This document shows positions 1-13,310 of a DNA stretch of 13,310 nt, piece by piece (positions within the stretch are counted from its first letter, which is position 1; each line of letters opens with the position of its first letter). The translations under genes were made by a program, and so were the position numbers. Source of the stretch: a virus (lineage: Duplodnaviria > Heunggongvirae > Uroviricota > Caudoviricetes); the IMG/VR virus record IMGVR_UViG_2537561622_000007. One strand, 5' to 3'. The notes below the pieces were generated by a model. That model ran no database searches and had not been told where the DNA came from. It saw only the letters and a program-made list of their open reading frames with translations.

Positions 1-600
1 ATGGCGCATATACAACTGGTCAAACAAACCTCTTCCGGATTACTTCTCCCGGCGACGCCGGAGAGTTGCGATTTTTTGCATCAAATCAAAATAGGTGAGT
101 GGATACACGCAGACTTTAAGCGTGTGCGTAACTACGCATTCCACAAGCGTTTTTTCAAACTCCTGCAACTGGGATTTGATTACTGGACTCCGGTCGGTGG
201 GGCGATCACGCCTCGCGAACGAAAACTGGTATCAGGCTTCGTTGATTACCTGTGCGAATCAGTAGGTCGGGAACACACTCCAGCCCTGAGTGATGCCGCA
301 GAGCAATACCTTAATACAGTTGCGACATGCAGAACCCGGGATACGGCATTGCTAAAGTCGTTTGACGCTTTCCGCGAGTGGGTAACTATTCAGGCCGGAT
401 TTTACACCGAGCATATTTATCCTGATGGTAGTCGTGGGCGCAGGGCAAAATCAATCGCATTTGCGAACATGGACGAAACCGAGTTTCAGCAGGTTTATAA
501 ATCTGTACTGAATGTGCTGTGGAACTGGATCCTGTTCCGTAAATTTTCCTCTCCGGAGGAAGTCGAAAATGTGGCCGCGCAGTTACTGGAGTTTGCGTAA
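1..600 (+). CDS. Lambdoid prophage nin-region protein, DUF1367-like (199 aa)
   Basis: Full ORF in the six-frame track. Stop TAA 598-600 overlaps the next ATG (TAATG), typical phage translational coupling. Family assignment is from recalled similarity to lambdoid nin-region proteins, not a search. Confidence 0.5.
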   Translation: MAHIQLVKQTSSGLLLPATPESCDFLHQIKIGEWIHADFKRVRNYAFHKRFFKLLQLGFDYWTPVGGAITPRERKLVSGFVDYLCESVGREHTPALSDAAEQYLNTVATCRTRDTALLKSFDAFREWVTIQAGFYTEHIYPDGSRGRRAKSIAFANMDETEFQQVYKSVLNVLWNWILFRKFSSPEEVENVAAQLLEFA

Positions 601-889
601 TGGTGGATTTACGTAAAGCGGCGCGGGGGCAGATGTGCACCGTCAGAATTCCTGGCTACTGCAATCACAATCCCGAAACTTCTGTGCTGGCGCATTACAG
701 GCTGGCGGGGACGTGCGGAACAGCGACAAAACCACACGATATGCAGGCAGCGATTGCCTGTAGCTCATGCCACGATTTAATCGACGGGCGGGTAAAAACC
801 AGCGATTACACCAAAGAAGAATTACGCCTGATGCATGCAGAAGGTGTTTTCGCACACAAGAAATCTGGAGAAAGGAAGGTTATTTATGA
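600..889 (+). pseudogene. YbcO-like (DUF1364) Cys-rich protein, frame broken by a 1-bp shift near 849-851
   Basis: N-terminal part in frame 0 (MVDLRKAARGQMCTVRIPGYCNHNPETSVLAH...IACSSCHD) resembles DLP12 YbcO as recalled. The YbcO-like C-terminus (RTQEIWRKEGYL*) is in another frame and ends at TGA 887-889, which overlaps the next ATG 886-888 (ATGA). The track ORF 600..1007 is an out-of-frame read-through. The shift lies at a T-run (847-850). Confidence 0.5.
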
Positions 890-1277
890 TTTACCCAACA
901 AATACAGGCAAAAGCGGGGAACACCTTCGTCTCACCACGCTGGAAAGTGTCTGGATTCAGGGAAAACTGCGCATGTGGGGGCGCTGGTCGTATATTGGCG
1001 GCGGTAAGACGGGAAATATGTTTAACCAGTTGCTGGCATCCAAAAAATTGACGAAAACAGCCGTCAATGAAGCCCTGCGCAGGATGAAAAAGCGGGAATA
1101 GAGAAACCTGAGCTGGAAGCGTTTTTGCGAGAGATGATCAATGGCAAGCAAAAGACCTGGCTGGCGCATTGTACTGATGCAGAGGCGTTATGTATTGATA
1201 GAGTCATAAGTGAGGTGCTGGCAGAGCATCCTGGATTGATTAGTGTCCTCCGGCAACGGTATGAAGGCGGGGGATGA
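886..1277 (+). pseudogene. Q-like late antiterminator candidate, frame interrupted at TAG 1099-1101
   Basis: ATG 886 (MIYPTNTGKSGEHLRL...RRMKKRE) stops at 1099-1101; the reading continues in the adjacent frame from 1101 (EKPELEAFLREMINGKQKTWLAHCTDAEALC...RYEGGG*) to TGA 1275-1277. One inserted base near 1098 (gaatag to gaaatag) would restore a single ~130-aa ORF. Position after the nin genes and before a promoter/terminator pair fits Q. Family identity is from memory. Confidence 0.4.
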
Positions 1278-1441
1278 CTAAGCGTAAAATGGCTGAATTG
1301 CTGAATGACGCACACCCTGAGTGGTGTTTCCGGACGTGCTGCAGTCGGGTAGATGTATGGCTAAATCTTGCTGAATATATGCTCTATCTACCGGTGCGTG
1401 ATGCATTCTCTTCCGGGGATCTAAAGACCGTTTGTTGACTC
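1274..1441 (+). CDS. Hypothetical small Cys-containing protein (55 aa), below the ORF-track cutoff
   Basis: ATG 1274-1276 overlaps the Q-like stop 1275-1277 (ATGA). Translates as MTKRKMAELLNDAHPEWCFRTCCSRVDVWLNLAEYMLYLPVRDAFSSGDLKTVC*. No recognised family. Confidence 0.2.
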
Positions 1442-1464
1442 AATCTGTTATCCGGGGCTATATT
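1435..1464 (+). promoter_or_regulatory. Sigma70-type promoter, candidate lambdoid late promoter (PR'-like)
   Basis: -35 TTGACT at 1435-1440, 18-bp spacer, -10 TATATT at 1459-1464. Lies just downstream of the Q-like gene and ~65 bp upstream of a strong intrinsic terminator, the arrangement of lambda PR'/tR'. Confidence 0.4.
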
Positions 1465-1526
1465 CCTCACGCGCCAGCAAAATCTGGCGTCGGGATTGGC
1501 GTCCCGGATGTTTACGGAGCGATATG

Positions 1527-1547
1527 AGACGCGCCCGCGTCTTTTTT
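1527..1547 (+). terminator. Intrinsic terminator, tR'-like
   Basis: GC-rich hairpin: AGACGC (1527-1532), loop GCCC, GCGTCT (1537-1542), followed by a T-run 1542-1547. Confidence 0.5.
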
Positions 1548-1825
1548 CATATCGTTTGCACAGTCACATTCGCGATTTATGGCGGGCTGTGTGGGGGAGC
1601 CGAAAGGCTCGCCGGTTTCCGTACCCGGTTACGCCAACCCTGCACAGTTCGCCACCAGTTCGATTGGCGTCGTCGGTGGCGATAATTTCCAAATGTACGG
1701 AGTTATCGTTATGACCACTCAAATCTCTGTTGAAACTCTCTCCCCGATCACCCATAACCAGTGAGGTAGCCTGAGTTTAACGGACACTCCTTCCTGAAAT
1801 AGAATGGCATCAGAAGGAGCTAATA

Positions 1826-2128
1826 ATGAGCAGAAAAACCCAACGTTACTCTAAAGAGTTCAAAGCCGAAGCTGTCAGAACGGTTCTTGAAAATCAACTT
1901 TCGATCAGTGAAGGCGCTTCCCGATTATCCCTTCCTGAAGGCACTTTAGGACAATGGGTTACCGCCGCCAGAAAAGGGCTCGGTACTCCTGGTTCCCGCA
2001 CGGTGGCTGAACTGGAATCTGAAATTCTGCAACTGCGTAAGGCGTTAAATGAAGCTCGCCTTGAGCGAGATATATTAAAAAAAGCAACAGCGTATTTTGC
2101 ACAGGAGTCGCTGAAAAATACGCGTTAA
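1826..2128 (+). CDS. IS600 OrfA (helix-turn-helix / leucine-zipper transposase subunit)
   Basis: MSRKTQRYSKEFKAEAVRTVLENQ... with AGGAG upstream; IS3-family OrfA architecture. Confidence 0.85.
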   Translation: MSRKTQRYSKEFKAEAVRTVLENQLSISEGASRLSLPEGTLGQWVTAARKGLGTPGSRTVAELESEILQLRKALNEARLERDILKKATAYFAQESLKNTR

Positions 2129-2163
2129 TCGAACAATGGCGACAACAATTTCCCATTGAAGCG

Positions 2164-2982
2164 ATGTGTCAGGTATTTGGTGTATCCAGGAGCGGTTATT
2201 ACAACTGGGTACAGCATGAACCCTCAGACAGAAAACAAAGTGATGAGCGGCTAAAACCGGAGATTAAGGTGGCACATATCCGCACTCGCGAAACATATGG
2301 AACCCGGCGGCTCCAGACGGAGCTGGCAGAGAATGGCATCATCGTTGGTCGTGACCGACTGGCACGTCTTCGTAAGGAGCTGAGGCTACGCTGTAAGCAG
2401 AAACGCAAGTTCAGAGCGACTACGAACCCGAACCACAATCTGCCAGTTGCGCCAAATCTGCTGAACCAGACGTTCGCTCCTACAGCACCAAATCAGGTCT
2501 GGGTGGCGGACCTGACGTATGTTGCCACACAGGAGGGATGGTTGTACCTCGCTGGCATCAAAGATGTTTATACGTGTGAAATTGTCGGCTACGCCATGGG
2601 AGAGCGCATGACAAAAGAGCTGACAGGTAAAGCCCTGTTTATGGCGCTCAGGAGCCAGCGCCCACCTGCCGGGCTAATCCACCACTCTGATCGAGGTTCA
2701 CAGTACTGCGCATACGATTACCGGGTCATACAGGAGCAGTCTGGTCTGAAAACATCAATGTCGCGTAAAGGTAACTGTTACGACAACGCTCCGATGGAAA
2801 GCTTCTGGGGAACGCTGAAAAATGAGAGCCTGAGCCACTATCGTTTTAATAACCGGGATGAAGCCATCTCAGTAATACGGGAATACATTGAGATTTTCTA
2901 CAATCGTCAGCGTCGTCACTCTCGTCTGGGGAATATCTCCCCGGCAGCCTTCAGGGAAAAATATCATCAGATGGCTGCTTAA
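2164..2982 (+). CDS. IS600 OrfB (DDE transposase catalytic domain)
   Basis: 272-aa ORF with IS3-family OrfB motifs (HSDRGSQY, KGNCYDNAPMESFWG). Probably expressed as an OrfAB fusion by -1 frameshift, so the true start lies upstream of 2164. Confidence 0.85.
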   Translation: MCQVFGVSRSGYYNWVQHEPSDRKQSDERLKPEIKVAHIRTRETYGTRRLQTELAENGIIVGRDRLARLRKELRLRCKQKRKFRATTNPNHNLPVAPNLLNQTFAPTAPNQVWVADLTYVATQEGWLYLAGIKDVYTCEIVGYAMGERMTKELTGKALFMALRSQRPPAGLIHHSDRGSQYCAYDYRVIQEQSGLKTSMSRKGNCYDNAPMESFWGTLKNESLSHYRFNNRDEAISVIREYIEIFYNRQRRHSRLGNISPAAFREKYHQMAA

Positions 2983-3631
2983 AAAAAGAACAAATGGTAG
3001 TGTCCGCTATTGCCAGTACACCTCACAGATTCCTGTTATTACCACCGAACTTTTGGCGCAGCTTTACGGCACTGAGCCGGTGCGTATTCGCCAGAATCAT
3101 CATGAGAACAAAGTACGCTTCGTTGAAGGGAAACACTTTTTCAAAGTTGTTGGTAATGACCTTAAAGAATTGCGGGTCGCTTTAAACTACTCACAAAATC
3201 CAGTTTCACCCAAAGCCCGCTCCCTCATCCTCTGGACAGAACGAGGCGCAGCACGCCACGGCAAAATGCTCGAAACCGATCAGGCGTGGGATGTGTTCGA
3301 AAAACTGGAAGACTGCTATTTCAGTCAAAGGGATCCGTCAACGCCAGTTTCATGCCAGAAAAGTTACGACACGCGAGTTCTCTGTTATCAGAGAGGCGGT
3401 GTCACTGTTTCCACAATTCAGTTACGGGATGATGATATTGTTATTTCCCTTGAGTCATGGCTGGAACTGGCGAGAGCCAATGGTTGGTTTGTTGTTCGCA
3501 GAGATAAACTGGTGGAAAGGTTGATGCAGCTTTAAAAAAGTTCTTGCATTTTTGCACATAAACTGCTTCAATTACGGTAAGCTTCGCAAAGCTGTATCGC
3601 GAGGCGAATAGCAGACATGGACACTTGAAAG

Positions 3632-3743: not shown

Positions 3744-3820
3744 GGCCCTTTAGCTCAGTTGGTCAGAGCGAGCGACTCATAATCGCCAGGTCGCTGGTTC
3801 AAGTCCAGCAAGGGCCACCA
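3744..3820 (+). tRNA. tRNA, anticodon CAU; ileX/ileZ-like (Ile2, lysidine-type) rather than Met
   Basis: Manual cloverleaf fold: 7-bp acceptor GGCCCTT/AAGGGCC, anticodon loop CTCATAA, T-arm GCTGG-TTCAAGT-CCAGC, 3' CCA encoded. Near-identical over most of its length to E. coli ileX as recalled. Confidence 0.8.
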
Positions 3821-3821
3821 A

Positions 3822-3898
3822 CCACCACTAGCTCATCCGGATAGAGCATCAACCTTCTAAGTTGACGGTGCGAGGTTCGAGTCCTCGGTGGTGGGCCA
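3822..3898 (+). tRNA. tRNA-Arg, anticodon UCU
   Basis: Acceptor CCACCAC/GTGGTGG, anticodon stem TCAAC/GTTGA, loop CTTCTAA, T-loop TTCGAGT, CCA encoded. Starts 1 nt after the previous tRNA. Confidence 0.75.
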
Positions 3899-3900
3899 GC

Positions 3901-3976
<76 letters not shown>

Positions 3977-3979
3977 TAT

Positions 3980-4054
<75 letters not shown>

Positions 4055-4168: not shown

Positions 4169-5773
4169 ATGATTCAGCTATCCAGTAGTCACAAACTTCC
4201 AGCAGTCTACTATCTCTACCAGCGTAACGGCGTCTACTACTTCCGTCTTAGGGTCAGACAATCAAACAATGATAGAATGACCTCAATATCATTACGGACC
4301 AAGGATAGACGCACCGCTATGGCTTACTCAAGGCACATAAAGGCAGCACTCAAGGCAATACACGCAGACAGACCCAACGCTACCTATGAGGAAATGAGGG
4401 AACACCTTAAGGACATCGCTGAGTGTGAACTGTCTATGGGCCGTTCAGATCTCTTTGAGCCTGACATGAGGGATATCTACCGGGACCAATACGGAGAACT
4501 TGGTGAGAGCCTTACCGATGCTCTGGCTAGTGAGCCGCTAAGCATTGACCAGCATCGTTACATCAATGAGGCCCTGAAGGTGCTAAAAGCCTGTATGAGG
4601 CGTATCGAAGCGGGAGACAGTCAGCTTCTGATAGATTACGTCGATCTTTTTAATGATATTGATAGGCAAGATAACCAAGCAGACTCTGTGTCCCTATCTG
4701 TTAATGCTCCAGAAGTAAAACCAGAAGTTACGCCTAGCATTACCATAGCGAGCCTCTTTGAGCAATACGAAGCGGAGAACTATCAGAACTGGAAGCCTGC
4801 AACCTTAAGGGAAAACAAGGCGTCACACGCTGCGTTAATCGAAATATTCGACCATCTGGGTCTCAATGCAGACGCTAACAGGGCTGACATGCTTAGGGTC
4901 CGTGATGTGCTCCAGCAGTTACCTAGGAACCGTAAGCAGCGCTTCAAGGATGTCCCACTTGCTGACCTGTTGAGCCGTGAAGATAAGACAGATTGTCTGG
5001 ATGTCGTTACCATCAACAACAAGTATCTTATTAAGATGGCTGCTGTCTTTAGGTGGGCTGTGCGCAATGACTTGATTAAAAAGAACATGACTGAGGGTCT
5101 GGAGCTTAAAGTCCCTCAGCGTAAAGCCTCAGGGGCCCGTAACGCCTTCTCTACGGAGCAGGTGGGGCAACTACTGGTCGCAGCTAAGGCATACTCTCAG
5201 AAGACCTCTGGTAAGCCGTATCATTATTATGTTACCGCCTTGGCTGCTATCACTGGGGCGAGACTCAATGAAATAGCCCAACTACAGGTCAAAGACGTCA
5301 GGACCACTGAGGCGGGAACCGTTTATATTCATATCAATGAAGACGATAGTAGTCTACCCGGTAAGAGCATCAAGAACGCTCATAGTGACCGCTGTGTGCC
5401 TCTGGTCGATGGGGCCTATGGTTTTATATTGGCTGACTTTATGGCGCTTGTAGAGACCCGTAGAGGCGCTGACGGTGATGACGCTATGGTGTTCGATGGT
5501 CTGCGTCTCATGAAGAACGGTTACGGTGAGCAGGTGAGTAAATGGTTTAATCGGACGTTGTTGCCTAAAGTCCTCGTAGACCGTAGCGGCTTAGCGTTTC
5601 ACTCGTTTAGACATACAGTTGCGGCCCAGTTAAAACAACATGGGGTCGAGTTGGCGTATGCACAGGCGATCATGGGGCATAGTTCAGGGTCTATTACGTA
5701 CGACCGTTATGCTAAAGAGGTCGAGGTTGATAGGCTGGTCAATGTGATGGCTGATGTTTATAAGGAGACCTAG
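4169..5773 (+). CDS. Tyrosine recombinase / integrase (534 aa)
   Basis: C-terminal catalytic motifs visible: box I Arg in ALAAITGARLNEIAQL, box II HSFRHT, and the nucleophile region GHSSGSITYDRY. Unusually long N-terminal region (~300 aa). Starts 114 bp after tRNA-Gly, same orientation. Confidence 0.85.
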   Translation: MIQLSSSHKLPAVYYLYQRNGVYYFRLRVRQSNNDRMTSISLRTKDRRTAMAYSRHIKAALKAIHADRPNATYEEMREHLKDIAECELSMGRSDLFEPDMRDIYRDQYGELGESLTDALASEPLSIDQHRYINEALKVLKACMRRIEAGDSQLLIDYVDLFNDIDRQDNQADSVSLSVNAPEVKPEVTPSITIASLFEQYEAENYQNWKPATLRENKASHAALIEIFDHLGLNADANRADMLRVRDVLQQLPRNRKQRFKDVPLADLLSREDKTDCLDVVTINNKYLIKMAAVFRWAVRNDLIKKNMTEGLELKVPQRKASGARNAFSTEQVGQLLVAAKAYSQKTSGKPYHYYVTALAAITGARLNEIAQLQVKDVRTTEAGTVYIHINEDDSSLPGKSIKNAHSDRCVPLVDGAYGFILADFMALVETRRGADGDDAMVFDGLRLMKNGYGEQVSKWFNRTLLPKVLVDRSGLAFHSFRHTVAAQLKQHGVELAYAQAIMGHSSGSITYDRYAKEVEVDRLVNVMADVYKET

Positions 5774-5861
5774 AGGAGACCATAGTCTAGGATGACACTT
5801 ACTACAGACCTGTGTGGTCATGTTTTTGACTCATAGTTTTCTCTACTTGTCAAGGGATAAT

Positions 5862-5884
5862 TAATACGACTCACTATAGGGAGA
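5862..5884 (+). promoter_or_regulatory. T7 RNA polymerase promoter, consensus (copy 1); +1 G at 5879
   Basis: TAATACGACTCACTATAGGGAGA, 23/23 match to the T7 class III consensus (-17 to +6). Confidence 0.8.
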
Positions 5885-5982
5885 AGGGACACAAAAAGTT
5901 TTCTCTTCTAGGATGACACTTACTACAGACCTGTGCGGTCATGTTTTTGACTCATAGTTTTCTCTGCTTGTCAAGGGGTAAT

Positions 5983-6005
5983 TAATGCGACTCACTATAG
6001 GGAGA
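5983..6005 (+). promoter_or_regulatory. T7 RNA polymerase promoter (copy 2, one mismatch); +1 G at 6000
   Basis: TAATGCGACTCACTATAGGGAGA, 22/23 (A to G at -13). Confidence 0.7.
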
Positions 6006-6102
6006 AGGGACACAAAAAGTTTTCTCTTCTAGGATGACACTTACTACAGACCTGTGTGGTCATGTTTTTGACTCATGGTTTTCTCTACTTGTCAAGGATA
6101 AT

Positions 6103-6125
6103 TAATACGACTCACTATAGGGAGA
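6103..6125 (+). promoter_or_regulatory. T7 RNA polymerase promoter, consensus (copy 3); +1 G at 6120
   Basis: TAATACGACTCACTATAGGGAGA, 23/23 match. Confidence 0.8.
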
Positions 6126-6319
6126 AGGGACACAAAAAGTTTTCTCTTCTAGGACAACTAACCGTAACTTATCGCATCCTTTCAGGGGCGGGATGACCAA
6201 TTACAGACACCAAGCGTTCTACTTAAAGTGAATGCTTCCTGTGTGCTCTGGGTCAGTCGATAAGTGAATAGCAATAAGACACAATCATCTTAATTATGGT
6301 CTCTAGTCCCTACAGGGGC

Positions 6320-6463
6320 TTAACTTAAAGTTAACTTAAAGACACAATTAAAGATTAACTTATAGTATTACTTAAAGTTAACTTAAAGACACAATTAGAG
6401 ATTAACTTTAAGTATTAAATAAAAGATTTAATTAAAGACCAATTAAAGATTAACTCTAAGGGA
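6320..6463. repeat. AT-rich iteron-like direct repeats (~47-bp period, 2 good copies plus 1 degenerate) full of TTAAAG motifs
   Basis: Core TTAACTTAAAGACACAATTA[A/G]AGATTAACTT..AGTATTA at 6331-6370 and 6378-6417; degenerate third copy ~6424-6463. No ORF of 60 aa or more on either strand between 5774 and 6530. Confidence 0.6.
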
Positions 6464-6530
6464 ATACCTTAAGGGGTGATGATATTTATAATAATCAATC
6501 ACCAAACCTATAGGTCTTCTCTTGAAGTGG

Positions 6531-7729
<1,199 letters not shown>

Positions 7730-7787
7730 ATCACCTCTGTTCAGGTGGCCAAATTCAGTGTGCCACTTCACAGATAAGGATTGAGTA

Positions 7788-8636
7788 ATGGCTGATTCGA
7801 ATCTCAATGTGCCGGTAATCATCCAAGCTACGCGGCTCGATACATCAGTCCTTCCACGCAATATCTTCTCGCAGTCGTATCTGCTTTACGTTATCGCACA
7901 GGGCACTGATGTTGGTAACGTGGCTAACAAAGCCAACGAGGCCGGACAGGGCGCTTATGATGCACAGGTCAGGAACGATGAGCAGGATGTGATTCTCGCT
8001 GACCATGAGCAGCGAATTTCTGCTGCGGAAGCAACGCTTGTTAATCATGAGGAGCGAATCAGACAGGCAGAATCAACTCTTCAGGACCATGAAACACGAA
8101 TAGCTCAGAATGAAAGCGATATTTCGTCGCTTGACACAAGAGTTCAGTCGCTGGAGTCGCAGGTTTCAGACCATGAAACGCGCATCGATGCTCTGGAGTA
8201 TGCAACCACACGCAAGAAGTCAGAGGTTGTTTACTCTGGTGTATCTGTAACCATCCCGACAGCGCCGACCAACCTTGTTAGCCTGCTGAAAACGCTCACA
8301 CCGTCATCCGGCTCGTTGGCACCATTCTTCGACACCGTTAACAACAAGATGGTTGTGTTCAACGAGAACAAAACCCTGCTCTTCAAGTTGTCGATTGTCG
8401 GCACGTGGCCCAGCGGAACCGCCAACAGGTCAATGCAGCTAACCTTTTCCGGCTCTGTTCCTGACACACTGGTCAGCAGTCGTAATGCGGCGACAACAAC
8501 CGACAACATCCTGTTAGCTACGTTCTTCAGCGTGGATAAAGACGGCTTTCTTGCCACAAATGGCAGTACGTTAACCATTCAGTCGAATGGTGCGGCGTTT
8601 ACTGCCACAACCATCAAGATAATCGCGGAGCAGTGA
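7788..8636 (+). CDS. P22 gp26-like tail needle with C-terminal extension (282 aa)
   Basis: N-terminus [43 protein letters not shown]...[18 protein letters not shown] closely matches the recalled P22 gp26 N-terminus; heptad-like HE.RI repeats follow, then a ~130-aa Ser/Thr-rich C-terminal region, as in Sf6-type needles. AAGGA precedes the ATG. Confidence 0.75.
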
Positions 8637-9091
8637 TGATTACATTCAAACCAACGCGAAACATCGACCTGATAGAAGCAGTCGGAAATCACCCTGACAT
8701 TATCGCCGGGAGCAACAACGGTGATGGATACGACTACAAACCTGAATGCCGTTACTTTGAGGTGAACGTGCACGGTCAGTTTGGCGGCATTGTTTACTAT
8801 CAGGAGATTCAGCCGCTGACATTAGATTGCCACGCCATGTACCTGCCAGAGATTCGCGGCTTCAGCAAGGAAATTGGGCTGGCGTTCTGGCGATACATTC
8901 TGACTAACACCACCGTTCAGTGCGTAACATCGTTCGCTGCACGCAAATTCCGACACGGTCAGATGTACTGCGCAATGATTGGCCTTAAGCGTGTAGGAAC
9001 CATCAAGAAATACTTCAAAGGCGTGGATGACGTGACTTTTTACAGCGCCACACGCGAAGAACTAATCGACTTCCTGAATCACGGGAGATAG
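8636..9091 (+). CDS. P22 gene 14-position protein (about 151 aa)
   Basis: Assigned by synteny (after the needle, before the ejection proteins). GTG 8633 / ATG 8636 overlaps the needle stop (GTGATGA). No family recognised from sequence. Confidence 0.4.
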   Translation: MITFKPTRNIDLIEAVGNHPDIIAGSNNGDGYDYKPECRYFEVNVHGQFGGIVYYQEIQPLTLDCHAMYLPEIRGFSKEIGLAFWRYILTNTTVQCVTSFAARKFRHGQMYCAMIGLKRVGTIKKYFKGVDDVTFYSATREELIDFLNHGR

Positions 9092-9093
9092 CC

Positions 9094-9786
9094 ATGTTAT
9101 ATGCATTTAAGCTGGGCAGAAAACTGCGCGGCGAGGAACCTTATTGCCCTGAAAAAGGCGGGAAAGGTGGCAGTTCTGATAAAAGCGCAAAGTATGCAGC
9201 AGAAGCCCAGAAGTATGCTGCAGACCTGCAAAATCAGCAGTGGCAGACGATCATGAAAAACCTTGCTCCGTTCACGCCTCTTGCGGAGCAGTATGTTAAC
9301 CAGCTTCAGAACCTTTCCAGTTTAGAAGGTCAGGGGCAGGCACTTAATCAGTATTACAACTCTAAGCAGTATAAAGACCTTGCAGGGCAGGCGCGTTACC
9401 AGAGTCTTGCTGCTGCGGAGGCGACGGGTGGACTTGGTTCGACAGCCACAAGCAATCAACTGGCTACGATCGCGCCGACACTCGGTCAGTCTTGGTTATC
9501 AAATCAGATGAGCAATTACAACAATCTGGCAAACGTTGGGCTTGGTGCGCTGCAAGGTCAGGCAAACGCCGGGCAGACGTACGCCAACAACATGAGCAGC
9601 ATTGCACAGCAAAGCGCAGCTCTTGCCGCTGCTAATGCCAATAAACCATCAAGTCTTCAGACTGCAATTAGCGGTGGCACGTCTGGTGCGATTGCCGGTG
9701 CAGGTCTTGCCAGCCTTTTGGGAACATCAACGCCTTGGGGCGCTGGTATTGGTGCTGGTATCGGATTGCTTGGCTCGTTGTTTTAA
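9094..9786 (+). CDS. Ejection protein, P22 gp7-like (230 aa)
   Basis: Size and position match P22 gp7 (229 aa). Gln/Ala-rich with a Gly/Ala-rich hydrophobic C-terminus (GAGIGAGIGLLGSLF). GGGAGA precedes the ATG. Confidence 0.55.
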   Translation: MLYAFKLGRKLRGEEPYCPEKGGKGGSSDKSAKYAAEAQKYAADLQNQQWQTIMKNLAPFTPLAEQYVNQLQNLSSLEGQGQALNQYYNSKQYKDLAGQARYQSLAAAEATGGLGSTATSNQLATIAPTLGQSWLSNQMSNYNNLANVGLGALQGQANAGQTYANNMSSIAQQSAALAAANANKPSSLQTAISGGTSGAIAGAGLASLLGTSTPWGAGIGAGIGLLGSLF

Positions 9787-9795
9787 GGGGGAATC

Positions 9796-11127
9796 ATGGC
9801 TACTTGGCAAGGAACAAACGGCGGATTGTTGGCTGGTATCGGCGGCGTCAACTCAAACGCTCCGAGCGTAAATGACATCGGCAATACGCTTCAGCTTATC
9901 AGGCAGAACAATGATATTGAGCGTTCAGGCGCTAACAATGTTGGGCTGACTGCTTTGCAAGGTCTTTCAGGTATTGCGGGTGTTTTTCAGCAGGAAAAGC
10001 AGGCTCAGCGGCAGAAAGAATTTCAGCAGGCGTACGCTAATGCTTATGCGTCTGGTGATCGCGGTGCTTTGCGTCAGTTGGCTACTCAATATCCAGACCA
10101 GATTGAATCCGTTCGTAAAGGCATGGGATTCATTGATGAAGAGCAGCGTAATTCTATCGGCACCTTAGCGGCTGGCGCACGCCTTGCGTCATCGTCTCCA
10201 GAAGCAATGCAATCATGGCTGCAAAACAACGCCGGTGAGTTAGCTCGTGTTGGCGTTAATCCTCATGACGTCGCTCAGATGTACCAACAGAACCCGCGGC
10301 AGTTCGGCGAATTTGTCGATCACCTGGGGATGAACAGTCTCGGGCCCGAAAAATACTTTGACCTACAGGATAAAATGCAGGGTCGCCAGGTTACCATGCG
10401 CGGTCAGGATCTGGATTCGCAAACCGCCGCTCGGAATCAGGCAATCACAATGCGCGGACAAGATATCCAGGCGAATTTAGGTCAGCAGCGCATTAATCTG
10501 GACGCAGAAACAAACCGCATTAACAACGAAAATAAGCGCCTTGACCGGATGCTATCAGCAGAAACTAACGACCTGAAGCGCCAGGAAATACAGAGCCGCA
10601 TAGCAGCCAACAACCAGCAGTTGCAGCAGAAGCAGCAAGCGCTAAATGATGGCTACAAAGACGGCATCAACACCCTCACAACCAGCATGTTCACTCTGAA
10701 CGATATCGTTAGTTCTCCTTCACTTAAGAGCATTACAGGCTTACGTGGAGTAATCCCCAACGTTCCAGGCTCACAGGCTGCAGACACTCAGGCACGACTT
10801 GATACCTTTAAATCACAAGCATACCTGACAGCGGTTCAGGCCATGCGAGGCATGGGCGCACTTTCTGATGCCGAGGGCAAAAAGCTCGACCAGGCTGTTG
10901 GTTCGCTGCAGAACTCGCAGAGCGAGGAGTCCTTTCGTCGCAACGCTGGCGTCATCCTGAACACGCTCAACCAGAAGCGTAATGAGGCGGTTGGTAAGTA
11001 CGTTCAGCAAAACGGTATCAAGCGAGTGGAAGCGCCTCAGGCTTCTATAGATTACCTGAAGCAGCACCCCGAGCTGTCAATCGACTTCATTAATCGCTAC
11101 GGATATCTTCCATCTTTGGGGCAGTAA
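9796..11127 (+). CDS. Ejection protein, P22 gp20-like (443 aa)
   Basis: Position and size in the gp7-gp20-gp16 order. Gln/Asn-rich, with a strong RBS (AGGGGG). Confidence 0.5.
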   Translation: MATWQGTNGGLLAGIGGVNSNAPSVNDIGNTLQLIRQNNDIERSGANNVGLTALQGLSGIAGVFQQEKQAQRQKEFQQAYANAYASGDRGALRQLATQYPDQIESVRKGMGFIDEEQRNSIGTLAAGARLASSSPEAMQSWLQNNAGELARVGVNPHDVAQMYQQNPRQFGEFVDHLGMNSLGPEKYFDLQDKMQGRQVTMRGQDLDSQTAARNQAITMRGQDIQANLGQQRINLDAETNRINNENKRLDRMLSAETNDLKRQEIQSRIAANNQQLQQKQQALNDGYKDGINTLTTSMFTLNDIVSSPSLKSITGLRGVIPNVPGSQAADTQARLDTFKSQAYLTAVQAMRGMGALSDAEGKKLDQAVGSLQNSQSEESFRRNAGVILNTLNQKRNEAVGKYVQQNGIKRVEAPQASIDYLKQHPELSIDFINRYGYLPSLGQ

Positions 11128-12858
11128 ATGGCTAATTACCGTGATTTGTTAGAGCAGGCTGGCGCACGTTACGGTGTGCCAGAAGGGTTGATGACTGCAC
11201 TGGGTGCCAAGGAGTCTTCTTACAACCCTGCCGCAGTAAGCTCCGCCGGGGCTGTAGGATTGACTCAGGTCATGCCTGGGACATGGCGTGATATGGGTTA
11301 TACCGATGAGCAAATGCAAAACCCCGAATATCAGGCTGACGCTGGCGCGCGCTATCTGGCAAAGATGTACCAGCAGTTTGGTAACTGGCGTGACGCTCTT
11401 CAGGCTTATCACGACGGTCCCGGCAACGTTATGAAGGCAAAGCGTGGTGAATATACGCCAGGACCTGAAGGCCGCGGTTACGTTGATGATCGCTTTGCTC
11501 AATGGGCTGGTGACCCGGTGACAGACTCAACAGTCGAACAGCGCGCCACCTCTGCAAAGGTACATCCTCAGCAAGACCCTAACAACCCGTTTGCACAACT
11601 GGAAGTACAGTCATCCGAACAAGTATCGGCATCAGGTGTGCAGTCAGACCCAAATAATCCATTTGCTCAGATTGAGCAGCAGGCAGCCAGTCAGCAGCCA
11701 CCTCAACCCGTAAGTTCTGTCGCACCGAAACCTGTTCAGCAACAAACAGTTAATCAGGCCAATAATGCACCAACACGGGAAGAACCATCATTGATGCAAC
11801 AAGCTGGCGATTGGCTCACTGGTGGTCAAAGTGCAGGGCAAATTGCAGAACAGGCTGGTCGTGGTCTGGTAAACATACCATTTGACGTATTGCAGGGTGG
11901 CGCAAGTCTGATTAATGCAATCAGTCAGGGGCTTGGGGGGCCAAAAGTATTGGATGATGTTTATCGTCCAGTAGACAGACCGACAGACCCCTACGCGCAA
12001 GCTGGAGAGTCAATAGGCGGTTATCTTGTTCCTGGAGCAGGTGTAGCTGGAAACATGGTCATTGGTTCTCTCGCTGACGCGGCGAATCAACGGGGTGATT
12101 TTGCCGAAAATGCCGCTATTAATGCCGGACTTAGCATTGCTACGCATGGCCTGATAAATGGCGTTACCCGTGGTGTTCGTGGTGCATCAAATATAATTAG
12201 TGGCAATAAAACATCTGCACAGAGAGCGACCACTGCGCCAACAGAAACATCACCATTCTCCGGTGATGCCGCTGCAGCAACAAATCCTGCGGTTCATGCC
12301 GCAGAGGCAAGAGTAGCACAAGGTGTACCAATGACGCCTGCGACGAAGAACCCAGAGGAAGTCGTTCGCACAGTAGCAGCACAAAAAAGGCCAAATCTCG
12401 CTTCATCGCTTGATGAACTAGATATCAATCCTCAGGCTGAAGTTCTGGAGTCTGCTGAAAGGCTTAATGTTGATTCATTACTCCCTTCACACTTTTCCGG
12501 GAACGAGCAATACAAGGCAGTTGAGCAAGCAATCAAGTCCCGTGCGGGTTCTGCTCTACAGGTGCAGGAAAATGAAGCAATCAGGCAGCTAGCACAGGGC
12601 GCGGGTGAGATAATTGATCGCGTTTCCGGTGCAAAAGATGCTCTTGGTATGAGCGACAAGTTTATTGATACGGTCAATGGAAGAATGTCTGCGCTGATGA
12701 AACGAAGCGACCAGCTTTATCGCAATGTTGAAAAGGCGATGCCTGCAGGTGCAAAAATTGATGCGCCATCAACAAGGTCAATGCTCAAACAGGTGGCAGA
12801 AGATCTTGGCGGGATGAAAAACCTTGACCCTATTGAAAAGAGAGTTGAGGTAGCCTGA
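11128..12858 (+). pseudogene. Ejection/internal virion protein (gp16-position) with N-terminal lytic-transglycosylase motif; 3' end truncated by IS600
   Basis: N-terminus carries an SLT-like signature ([30 protein letters not shown]). The ORF runs into the IS600 inverted repeat at 12846 and stops at TGA 12856-12858, which is inside the IS, so the native C-terminus is missing. Confidence 0.55.
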
Positions 12859-12929
12859 GTTTAACGGACACTCCCTCCTGAAATAGAATGGCATCAGAAG
12901 GAGCTAATAATGAGCAGAAAAACCCAACG
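12846..12929 (+). mobile_element. IS600 fragment (first 84 bp, including the OrfA start), interrupted by IS629
   Basis: 12846-12929 matches 1762-1845 of the complete IS600 except one base, then diverges where IS629 begins. Confidence 0.8.
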
Positions 12930-13310
12930 TGAACCGCCCCGGGAATCCTGGAGACTAAACTTCCTGAGAAAGAGGTAAACAGGATGACTAAAAATACTCG
13001 TTTTTCCCCCGAAGTCCGTCAACGGGCAGTCCGTATGGTTCTGGAAAGTCAGGGCGAATATGACTCACAATGGGCGACAATTTGTTCCATTGCCCCAAAG
13101 ATTGGCTGTACGCCGGAGACTCTGCGTGTCTGGGGTCGCCAGCATGAGCGGGATACCGGGGGCGGTGATGGAGGGCTCACCACCGCTGAACGTCAGCGTC
13201 TGAAAGAGCTGGAGCGTGAAAATCGTGAACTGCGCCGCAGTAACGATATCCTTCGCCAGGCTTCCGCTTATTTTGCGAAGGCGGAGTTCGACCGCCTCTG
13301 GAAAAAATGA
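12930..13310 (+). mobile_element. IS629-like element (IS3 family), left end only; runs off the window
   Basis: Left end TGAACCGCCCCGGGAATCCTGGAGACTAAACTTCCTGAGAAAGAGGTAAACAGG, then OrfA, matching recalled IS629/IS1203. Confidence 0.8.
12984..13310 (+). CDS. IS629 OrfA (108 aa)
   Basis: [50 protein letters not shown]...; complete, stop at 13308-13310. Confidence 0.8.

Follow-up and report, generated by a model that had tools for sequence, protein, structure and literature searches.

The window, that is, the whole stretch of 13,310 nucleotides that was analysed, begins with P22-like prophage genes (1-3535) and returns to them at 7771-13310. Inside this P22-like prophage lies a tRNA cluster, Met-Arg-Thr-Gly(UCC), at 3744-4054, and the 3' end of its last tRNA, the tRNA-Gly(UCC) at 3980-4054 (+ strand, called by ARAGORN), is the attL of a second, smaller element. 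The element contains an ORF for a tyrosine integrase of 534 aa, int (4169-5773, + strand; Pfam PF00589, E = 2e-17; phrog_1, E = 2e-44), followed by three 121-bp tandem repeats (5786-6148, + strand), each of which carries a T7 promoter and a 5' stem-loop leader. Between these promoter repeats and an IS911 (6523-7770, - strand, 99.9% identical to the annotated IS911), which truncates the element, there is a region without genes at 6154-6522. The original prediction that this region holds no ORF of at least 60 aa is borne out, since none was found inside it and its edges are touched only by a 46-aa ORF (6056-6196, + strand) and a 52-aa ORF (6443-6601, - strand). Its description as AT-rich applies to 6320-6470 (20.5% GC) but not to 6154-6275 (45% GC), and the region is a composite. 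The att junction, ...CCGCTCCA followed by TGACCTTTCTTAAAGT, is also present at the chromosomal glyU tRNA-Gly(CCC) of relatives. The window element sits in the prophage-borne tRNA-Gly(UCC) of a four-tRNA cluster and most relatives sit in chromosomal glyU tRNA-Gly(CCC); the 3' ends of the two tRNAs have TTCGATTCCC...GCCCGCTCCA in common.

The cut by IS911 at 6523 is confirmed, and the window copy is a truncated relic without cargo genes and attR, in which the promoters, an origin-like block and a copy of a phage concatemer junction are intact. What followed the cut had been given up as lost; this is true for the window but not for three uninterrupted relatives (L011, L001 and L002). These three show short GGTC-containing tandem repeats and often another phage-type promoter, and beyond these a leader that is conserved, an ORF of the KilA-N or Rha-like kind and finally attR. 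Within the window lineage, L011 is the copy without an interruption. Another relative (L010) has an IS911 (1279-2530) at exactly the junction of the window, but in the reverse orientation, with TCT duplicated and with more of the element beyond it. In the window, IS911 has no target duplication and P22-like genes come directly after it, from which it follows that an IS-mediated rearrangement removed the rest of the element; the sequence suggests an inversion or deletion between IS911 copies.

By megablast, 104 of the 5,426 complete E. coli genomes contain the region together with the promoters and the integrase; when an intact relative was the query and sensitivity was raised, the number was 351. 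The E. coli copies always adjoin tRNA-Gly (glyU), at the edge of the ETT2 island. A 24-nt core motif, used as a query for copies beyond E. coli, gave matches in K. pneumoniae ATCC 13883, Rouxiella silvae, Edaphovirga cremea and an Enterobacteriaceae isolate, and also in three viral contigs and 24 metagenome contigs. The region is part of an element of 4-7 kb that has tRNA-Gly as its integration site and is found in E. coli, Klebsiella, Rouxiella and other Enterobacterales. Like a phage satellite, the element is small and bounded by an integrase and att sites; in intact copies the 3' end of tRNA-Gly recurs at the right boundary. The lengths from att to att, measured on L001, L002, L016, L017, L019, L020, L023, L035 and L037, are 4.2-4.8 kb for type A and 6.4-6.6 kb for type B. 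A T7 or K11 head of 39-41 kb corresponds to about nine copies of the 4.2-4.8 kb class or about six of the 6.4-6.6 kb class. The type B elements of E. coli ESY002 (L006) and K. pneumoniae ATCC 13883 (L016) are almost identical, which points to recent transfer between genera. One copy (L030) is inserted in tandem, with another mobile element in front of it, and the metagenome and virome contigs yielded no copies of the element in excised, circular or concatemeric form. Literature searches for a T7 satellite returned nothing relevant and no earlier description of the element, and the element family is apparently undescribed.

The T7 promoters that had been noticed upstream of the region are indeed there, one in each 121-bp repeat. 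They are of the class III type and lie on the + strand at 5862-5884, 5983-6005 and 6103-6125 (+1 at 5879, 6000 and 6120), the second with one mismatch to the T7 consensus and the other two exact. As in a T7-type origin, a promoter for a phage RNAP faces the tract on the + strand, and this arrangement is kept in nearly all relatives. Among the 36 related loci, one to four T7-group promoters are located just upstream of a conserved core on the same strand in all except two, namely L035, which has no promoter match, and L027, which is 5'-truncated. Promoter specificities are mixed within single elements: the T7 type TAATACGACTCACTATAGGGAGA, the K11 type AATTAGGGCACACTATAGGGAGA, the przondovirus type AATTAGGTAGCACTATAGGGAGA, of which a Klebsiella przondovirus genome has about 12, and T7/T3-like hybrids. 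Arrays for mixed RNAPs upstream of one core are seen in L006 (3793-3910 and 4347-4369), L008 (3881-4022), L013, L014 and L015. A mixed promoter array is what a sensor for several helper phages would look like.

The core itself (6167-6265, + or transcript-sense strand, 45% GC) is near-invariant across genera and structured. A closing stem, ACTTATCG/CGATAAGT, surrounds a hairpin, CATCC/GGATG, and a long irregular hairpin. In the fold, 99.6% of cells are paired and three pairs are changed on both sides, whereas slid controls are 29-41% paired. Two lineages show compensatory changes in the closing stem (UA to CG) and in the inner hairpin, whose sequence is otherwise replaced, and the G-U pairs in the core point to the transcript-sense strand. 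Support for the structure is moderate because these are essentially two lineages. Rfam has no family for the core. A small conserved peptide in the core was considered and rejected, because indels change the reading frame between lineages.

The AT-rich block at 6320-6470 (+ strand) is made of ACTTAAAG-type units and is a candidate origin tract; all five ACTTAAAG octamers of the window are within the region. The dense array of TTAAAG motifs reported for it holds up, as there are 17 in the window against 6.5 ± 2.5 expected (none of 200 shuffles reaches 17), and 9 of the 17 lie inside 6154-6522, 8 of these on the + strand. The 47-bp direct repeats are also real but had been placed about 8 nt off: the two copies occupy 6323-6369 and 6370-6416 and are 94% identical, and the degenerate third copy is found at 6415-6455 (71%). 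The TCTCTAG element at 6300-6318 (+ strand), which was said to stand just before the repeats, is present as TCTCTAGTCCCTACAGGGG with a small palindrome, CCCTACAGGGG, but its hairpin is no better than that of shuffled sequences (z = -0.36), and family-wide only ...CAGGGGCT(T/A)AACTTAAAG is conserved. At the other side of the block, an inverted repeat, GGTGATGATATTTAT...ATCACC (6475-6503, + strand), resembles the hairpin downstream of phiOR in T7 and K11, its counterparts being at about 39330-39355 in T7 and about 40612-40630 in K11. The GGTGAT...ATCACC part (6455-6522) has its best score along both T7 and K11 after phiOR (p about 0.001-0.002 for that target). Judged by folding alone, the small hairpins at 6309 and 6475 were rejected, neither being significant (z = -1.35 for that at 6475).

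GGGTC, TGGTC and GTGTC are recognition sites of the T7 gene 4 primase, and a GGGTC at 6250 and a TGGTC at 6298, both on the + strand, lie just upstream of the AT block. The density of primase sites is 2-4 times the background, which is a moderate and inconsistent excess, with arrays in some relatives only. Short tandem repeats of variable number flank the module, each with TGGTC, GGGTC or AGGTC (9085-9245 in L001, 4030-4110 in L011, after the AT block in L032, and 5786-5830 in the window); examples are GATGACCATAGGC, repeated 14 times, and units of GGTCTCTCTATA and of GGGTCATCCCTT. The local density is up to 4-5 per 100 nt against a background of 0.24, though not in every lineage.

The region was originally read as a possible T7-RNAP-activated origin, and comparison with T7-group phages supports this reading: T7-group promoters face the block in the relatives, and the best matches of the block along the whole genomes of T7 and K11 are the tracts after phiOL, phi1.1/phi1.05 and phiOR. 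In T7, the tracts after phiOL, phi1.1 and phiOR are known origins, the primary one at phi1.1A/1.1B and those at phiOL and phiOR secondary; that units of a promoter and an AT tract are T7 origins was reportedly worked out by the Richardson laboratory in the 1980s. In a blastn search of the region against 50,697 phage genomes, only promoter matches were found at E ≤ 1e-5. Small-word searches against the whole T7 and K11 genomes, with first-order Markov controls, placed the T7 matches of the block at 5912-6007 (after phi1.1B, the primary origin), 414-495 (after phiOL), 261-340 and 39277-39365 (after phiOR), and its K11 matches at 5825-5860 and 40530-40588. The score of the block against T7 is 36.8 bits, compared with 24.2 ± 3.0 for the controls, none of 100 of which reaches the observed value. 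When the repeat run of four lineages was compared with K11 and T7, none of 100 controls reached the observed score in six of the eight tests. The two exceptions were both against T7, the window (1 of 100) and L013 (44 of 100, not significant), and the top matches were again just after phiOL, phi1.05/phi1.1 and phiOR. Moreover, the tract after phi1.05 in K11, ACTTAAAGTCTTAACTTAAAGA, which consists of a hairpin and then ATTACTTAAAGTCTTAACTTAAAGAATACTTAAAGA, aligns to 6322-6354 of the window (0 of 1000 shuffles), and this is the best place along K11. Matches in a relaxed database search are weak and were used only for location; most come from T7-like phages, where they lie between the genes for RNAP and ligase or towards the ends of the genome. 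The similarity scores between the block and these tracts are modest, and the AT block begins about 200 nt past the last +1, compared with about 12-80 nt in T7 and K11. Because AT-rich tracts after T7 promoters include translation-initiation-like sequence, the similarity could reflect features of the transcript and not origin function.

The second option that had been offered for 6154-6522, a relic of a concatemer junction, is not supported at that place; the junction copy lies instead 1.6 kb upstream, inside int. The 20-mer at 4684-4703 (+ strand), CTCTGTGTCCCTATCTGTTA, which is oriented like the promoters and stands in a linker of int that is variable, is an exact copy of the T7-group concatemer junction, CTCTGTGTCCCT followed by ATCTGTTA. 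In T7 the same 20 letters are found at 149-168, where the first 12 of them close the 160-bp terminal repeat and ATCTGTTA follows; the window has one match against 0 expected. K11 carries the identical sequence, annotated as 'concatemeric junction'. A 71-nt piece of int matches 529 phage records, almost all of them T7-like phages of Enterobacterales, and where annotated, the matches are the terminal repeat or the concatemeric junction. Although the linker is hypervariable and indel-rich, 19 distinct int genes all keep CTA TCT GTT unchanged, and the ATCTGTT signal, which is the class II pause site of T7 RNAP, stands at a fixed place in every integrase gene of the family. A full pac region, a full terminal repeat and a left end were not recognised in the element. 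Just upstream of the int start in the type B element L006 (1533-1549), CACAGTGAGCGGACCTA agrees with T7 4-20 at 15 of 17 positions, about 530 bp before the junction copy; as a candidate left end it was rejected, the match being too weak alone (E about 1).

Type A elements carry a KilA-N-like or Rha-like ORF and a small variable ORF, and type B adds DUF6971 (5732-6142 in L006) and a 375-aa protein (6237-7364 in L006). The structural model of the latter (pLDDT 67.5) matches HK97-fold capsids and encapsulins in Foldseek with probability 1.0 and E = 6e-8 at low TM scores, and a sequence search against PDB returned nothing. Because the predicted fold matches HK97-type capsid and encapsulin shells, this protein may provide the element with a capsid of its own or act in size determination. 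No excisionase was identified. All lineages have a conserved leader in front of the first cargo ORF (for example 10183-10298 in L001 and 4770-4883 in L006); it contains an inverted repeat, CTCAAAGTC...GACTTTGAG, and the ORF behind it differs, being KilA-N-like or Rha-like. In many relatives a DUF4145 gene comes directly after int and is PD-T7-4, or RAZR (E = 8e-99); the window copy is without it. The gene is found at 3152-3784 in L006 and also in L008, L013, L014 and L015. RAZR is described as an abortive-infection RNase that is triggered by the portal rings of T7 and T3 (PMC13017515), and PD-T7-4 was noted to 'often overlap an integrase gene' in a 2022 paper (PMC9519451). The searched passages of these two papers make no mention of the promoters, the origin-like block or the junction, and on the strength of these passages such native neighbours of RAZR appear not to have been described previously.

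We propose, as the simplest account, that 6154-6522 is a T7-RNAP-primed origin, the cis module for replicating a small satellite that is integrative and exploits T7-group phages or, in other words, a natural "T7 phagemid", and we put the probability of this reading at roughly 55%. From the sequences, their conservation and orientation and their similarity to phage elements, we infer priming, amplification, pausing and packaging as follows. The RNA polymerase of an infecting phage would fire from the promoter array at 5862-6125, and transcription would cross the structured leader at 6167-6265 into the AT-rich ACTTAAAG block at 6320-6470, which would imitate the tracts that T7 and K11 have behind their replication promoters (phiOL, phi1.1/phi1.05 and phiOR). 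The transcript would then prime the phage DNA polymerase, as at T7 origins, so that the helper replisome could amplify the element without any replication gene of its own. A polymerase rounding the excised or concatemeric element would reach the junction copy at 4684-4703 in int, where the helper terminase could cut and package multimers. Judged by sequence, natural look-alikes of an origin, of a pac site or junction and of a terminal repeat are lined up in one orientation on an integrative element, and the element is probably amplified and carried away on infection by a T7-like virus. Whether this extends to the whole widespread family, as satellites of virulent T7-like phages that work almost throughout by cis-mimicry, with a promoter sensor for multiple RNAPs, a transcription-primed origin and a junction in the int frame, is in our estimate an even call.

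An alternative that we regard as unlikely is that the region is the transcribed leader of a defence cassette triggered by the phage polymerase. It would act at the RNA level only, through stability, processing or timing, for a T7-RNAP-driven KilA-N, Rha-like or membrane-protein cargo that aborts infection, and neither replication nor transfer would be involved. It agrees with this explanation that the cargo ORFs are downstream in the same orientation behind the conserved leader, that the core is structured on the transcript-sense strand, G-U pairs included, and that in many copies the AT block is followed by yet another promoter. The RAZR gene next to int in relatives, a proven anti-T7 abortive-infection gene according to the searched passages (PMC9519451; PMC13017515), would likewise fit a purely defensive island (PMC13017515). 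However, a defence leader leaves unexplained the exact junction copy in int, the HK97-fold gene, the integrase with its att sites and the near-identity of elements between genera, as well as the specific likeness of the block to the origin tracts of T7 and K11, and the window lineage has no RAZR.

Somewhat less probable still is a packaging signal or mimic of a genome terminus, in which TCTCTAG, the palindrome and the TTAAAG array would imitate the left end of a T7-like genome, with its terminal repeat and short repeats, and form a cutting or terminase-binding site. T7 starts with TCTCACAG...CCCCCATAGGGGG...CCTAAAG and has 14 of its 57 [CT]TAAAG motifs in 1-500; some of the best T7 matches of the block are the short repeats at 261-340, and the GGTGAT..ATCACC hairpin resembles the phiOR-proximal region of the right end. 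Against this, the palindrome is not significant, TCTCTAG at 6300 is confined to type A lineages and replaced in type B, and the junction sequence is elsewhere, at 4684-4703. Neither TCTC[AT][CT]AG nor ATCTGTT occurs in 6154-6522, and the region has neither the right boundary of a terminus, ...GTGTCCCT and then ATCTGTT, nor a left end of the form TCTCACAG or TCTCATAG. Furthermore, the terminal short repeat of K11, CCTGAGG, is absent from the elements with K11 promoters. The 'iteron' label of the original prediction, under which an initiator encoded by the element would bind the 47-bp repeats of a plasmid- or satellite-type origin, has the direct repeats in an AT-rich region on its side but is highly improbable, as no complete relative has a Rep, primase, helicase or other replication gene, the number of repeats differs between near-identical copies (two in the window, one in L011), and the sequences of the units differ among lineages with only ACTTAAAG-type motifs persisting.

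T7 is the best-studied virulent phage. If the region is indeed the transcription-primed origin of a satellite, phages that are strictly lytic and degrade the host DNA also drive specific gene transfer, the element offers a natural test bed for the priming of T7 replication by transcription and for the coupling of RNAP pausing to packaging, and the anti-T7 gene RAZR (PD-T7-4) gains a mobile context. The elements are also relevant to phage therapy and to T7-based expression strains, because the chromosomes of the carriers hold perfect T7 or K11 promoters.

Compared with the origins of T7 itself, the module is alike in that phage-RNAP promoters, in tandem in both, read into an AT-rich tract, and in that its sequence is measurably similar to precisely these tracts in T7 and K11. 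It is unlike them in that it resides in a bacterial integrative element and not in a phage, and that several promoter specificities can be combined; its tract, of about 150-230 bp, exceeds theirs in length and is repetitive, and the conserved structured core lies in the roughly 200 nt between it and the last +1. The locus of RAZR, or PD-T7-4, is the same kind of place in many relatives, with the DUF4145 gene next to int, but the papers, in the passages searched, treat a single defence gene, which the window copy does without (PMC9519451; PMC13017515). T7 is reported to replicate a plasmid that has a T7 origin, a pac site and the terminal repeat, to package it in multimeric form and to transduce it (PMC13236587, citing Chung & Hinkle 1990). 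According to the searched part of that source, such laboratory phagemids have a promoter-dependent origin and a concatemer junction and no phage genes (PMC13236587), and the element resembles them in these functions by sequence likeness. In contrast to them, it is natural and integrative, with int and a tRNA att site, its junction lies within coding sequence, and neither a full terminal repeat nor a full pac region can be recognised in it. The closest described concept is that of PICMI, minimalist satellites of virulent vibriophages that are packaged as concatemers of helper-genome length (PMC10803314). PICMI and the element are both very small and bear an integrase, a virulent phage is the helper, actual for PICMI and proposed for the element, and there are no capsid-remodelling genes, which for the family described here applies to type A (PMC10803314). 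Whereas PICMI has AlpA, a primase and headful-like packaging (PMC10803314), the element described here, without a replication gene, appears to copy the promoters, the origin tracts and the specific junction of its helper.
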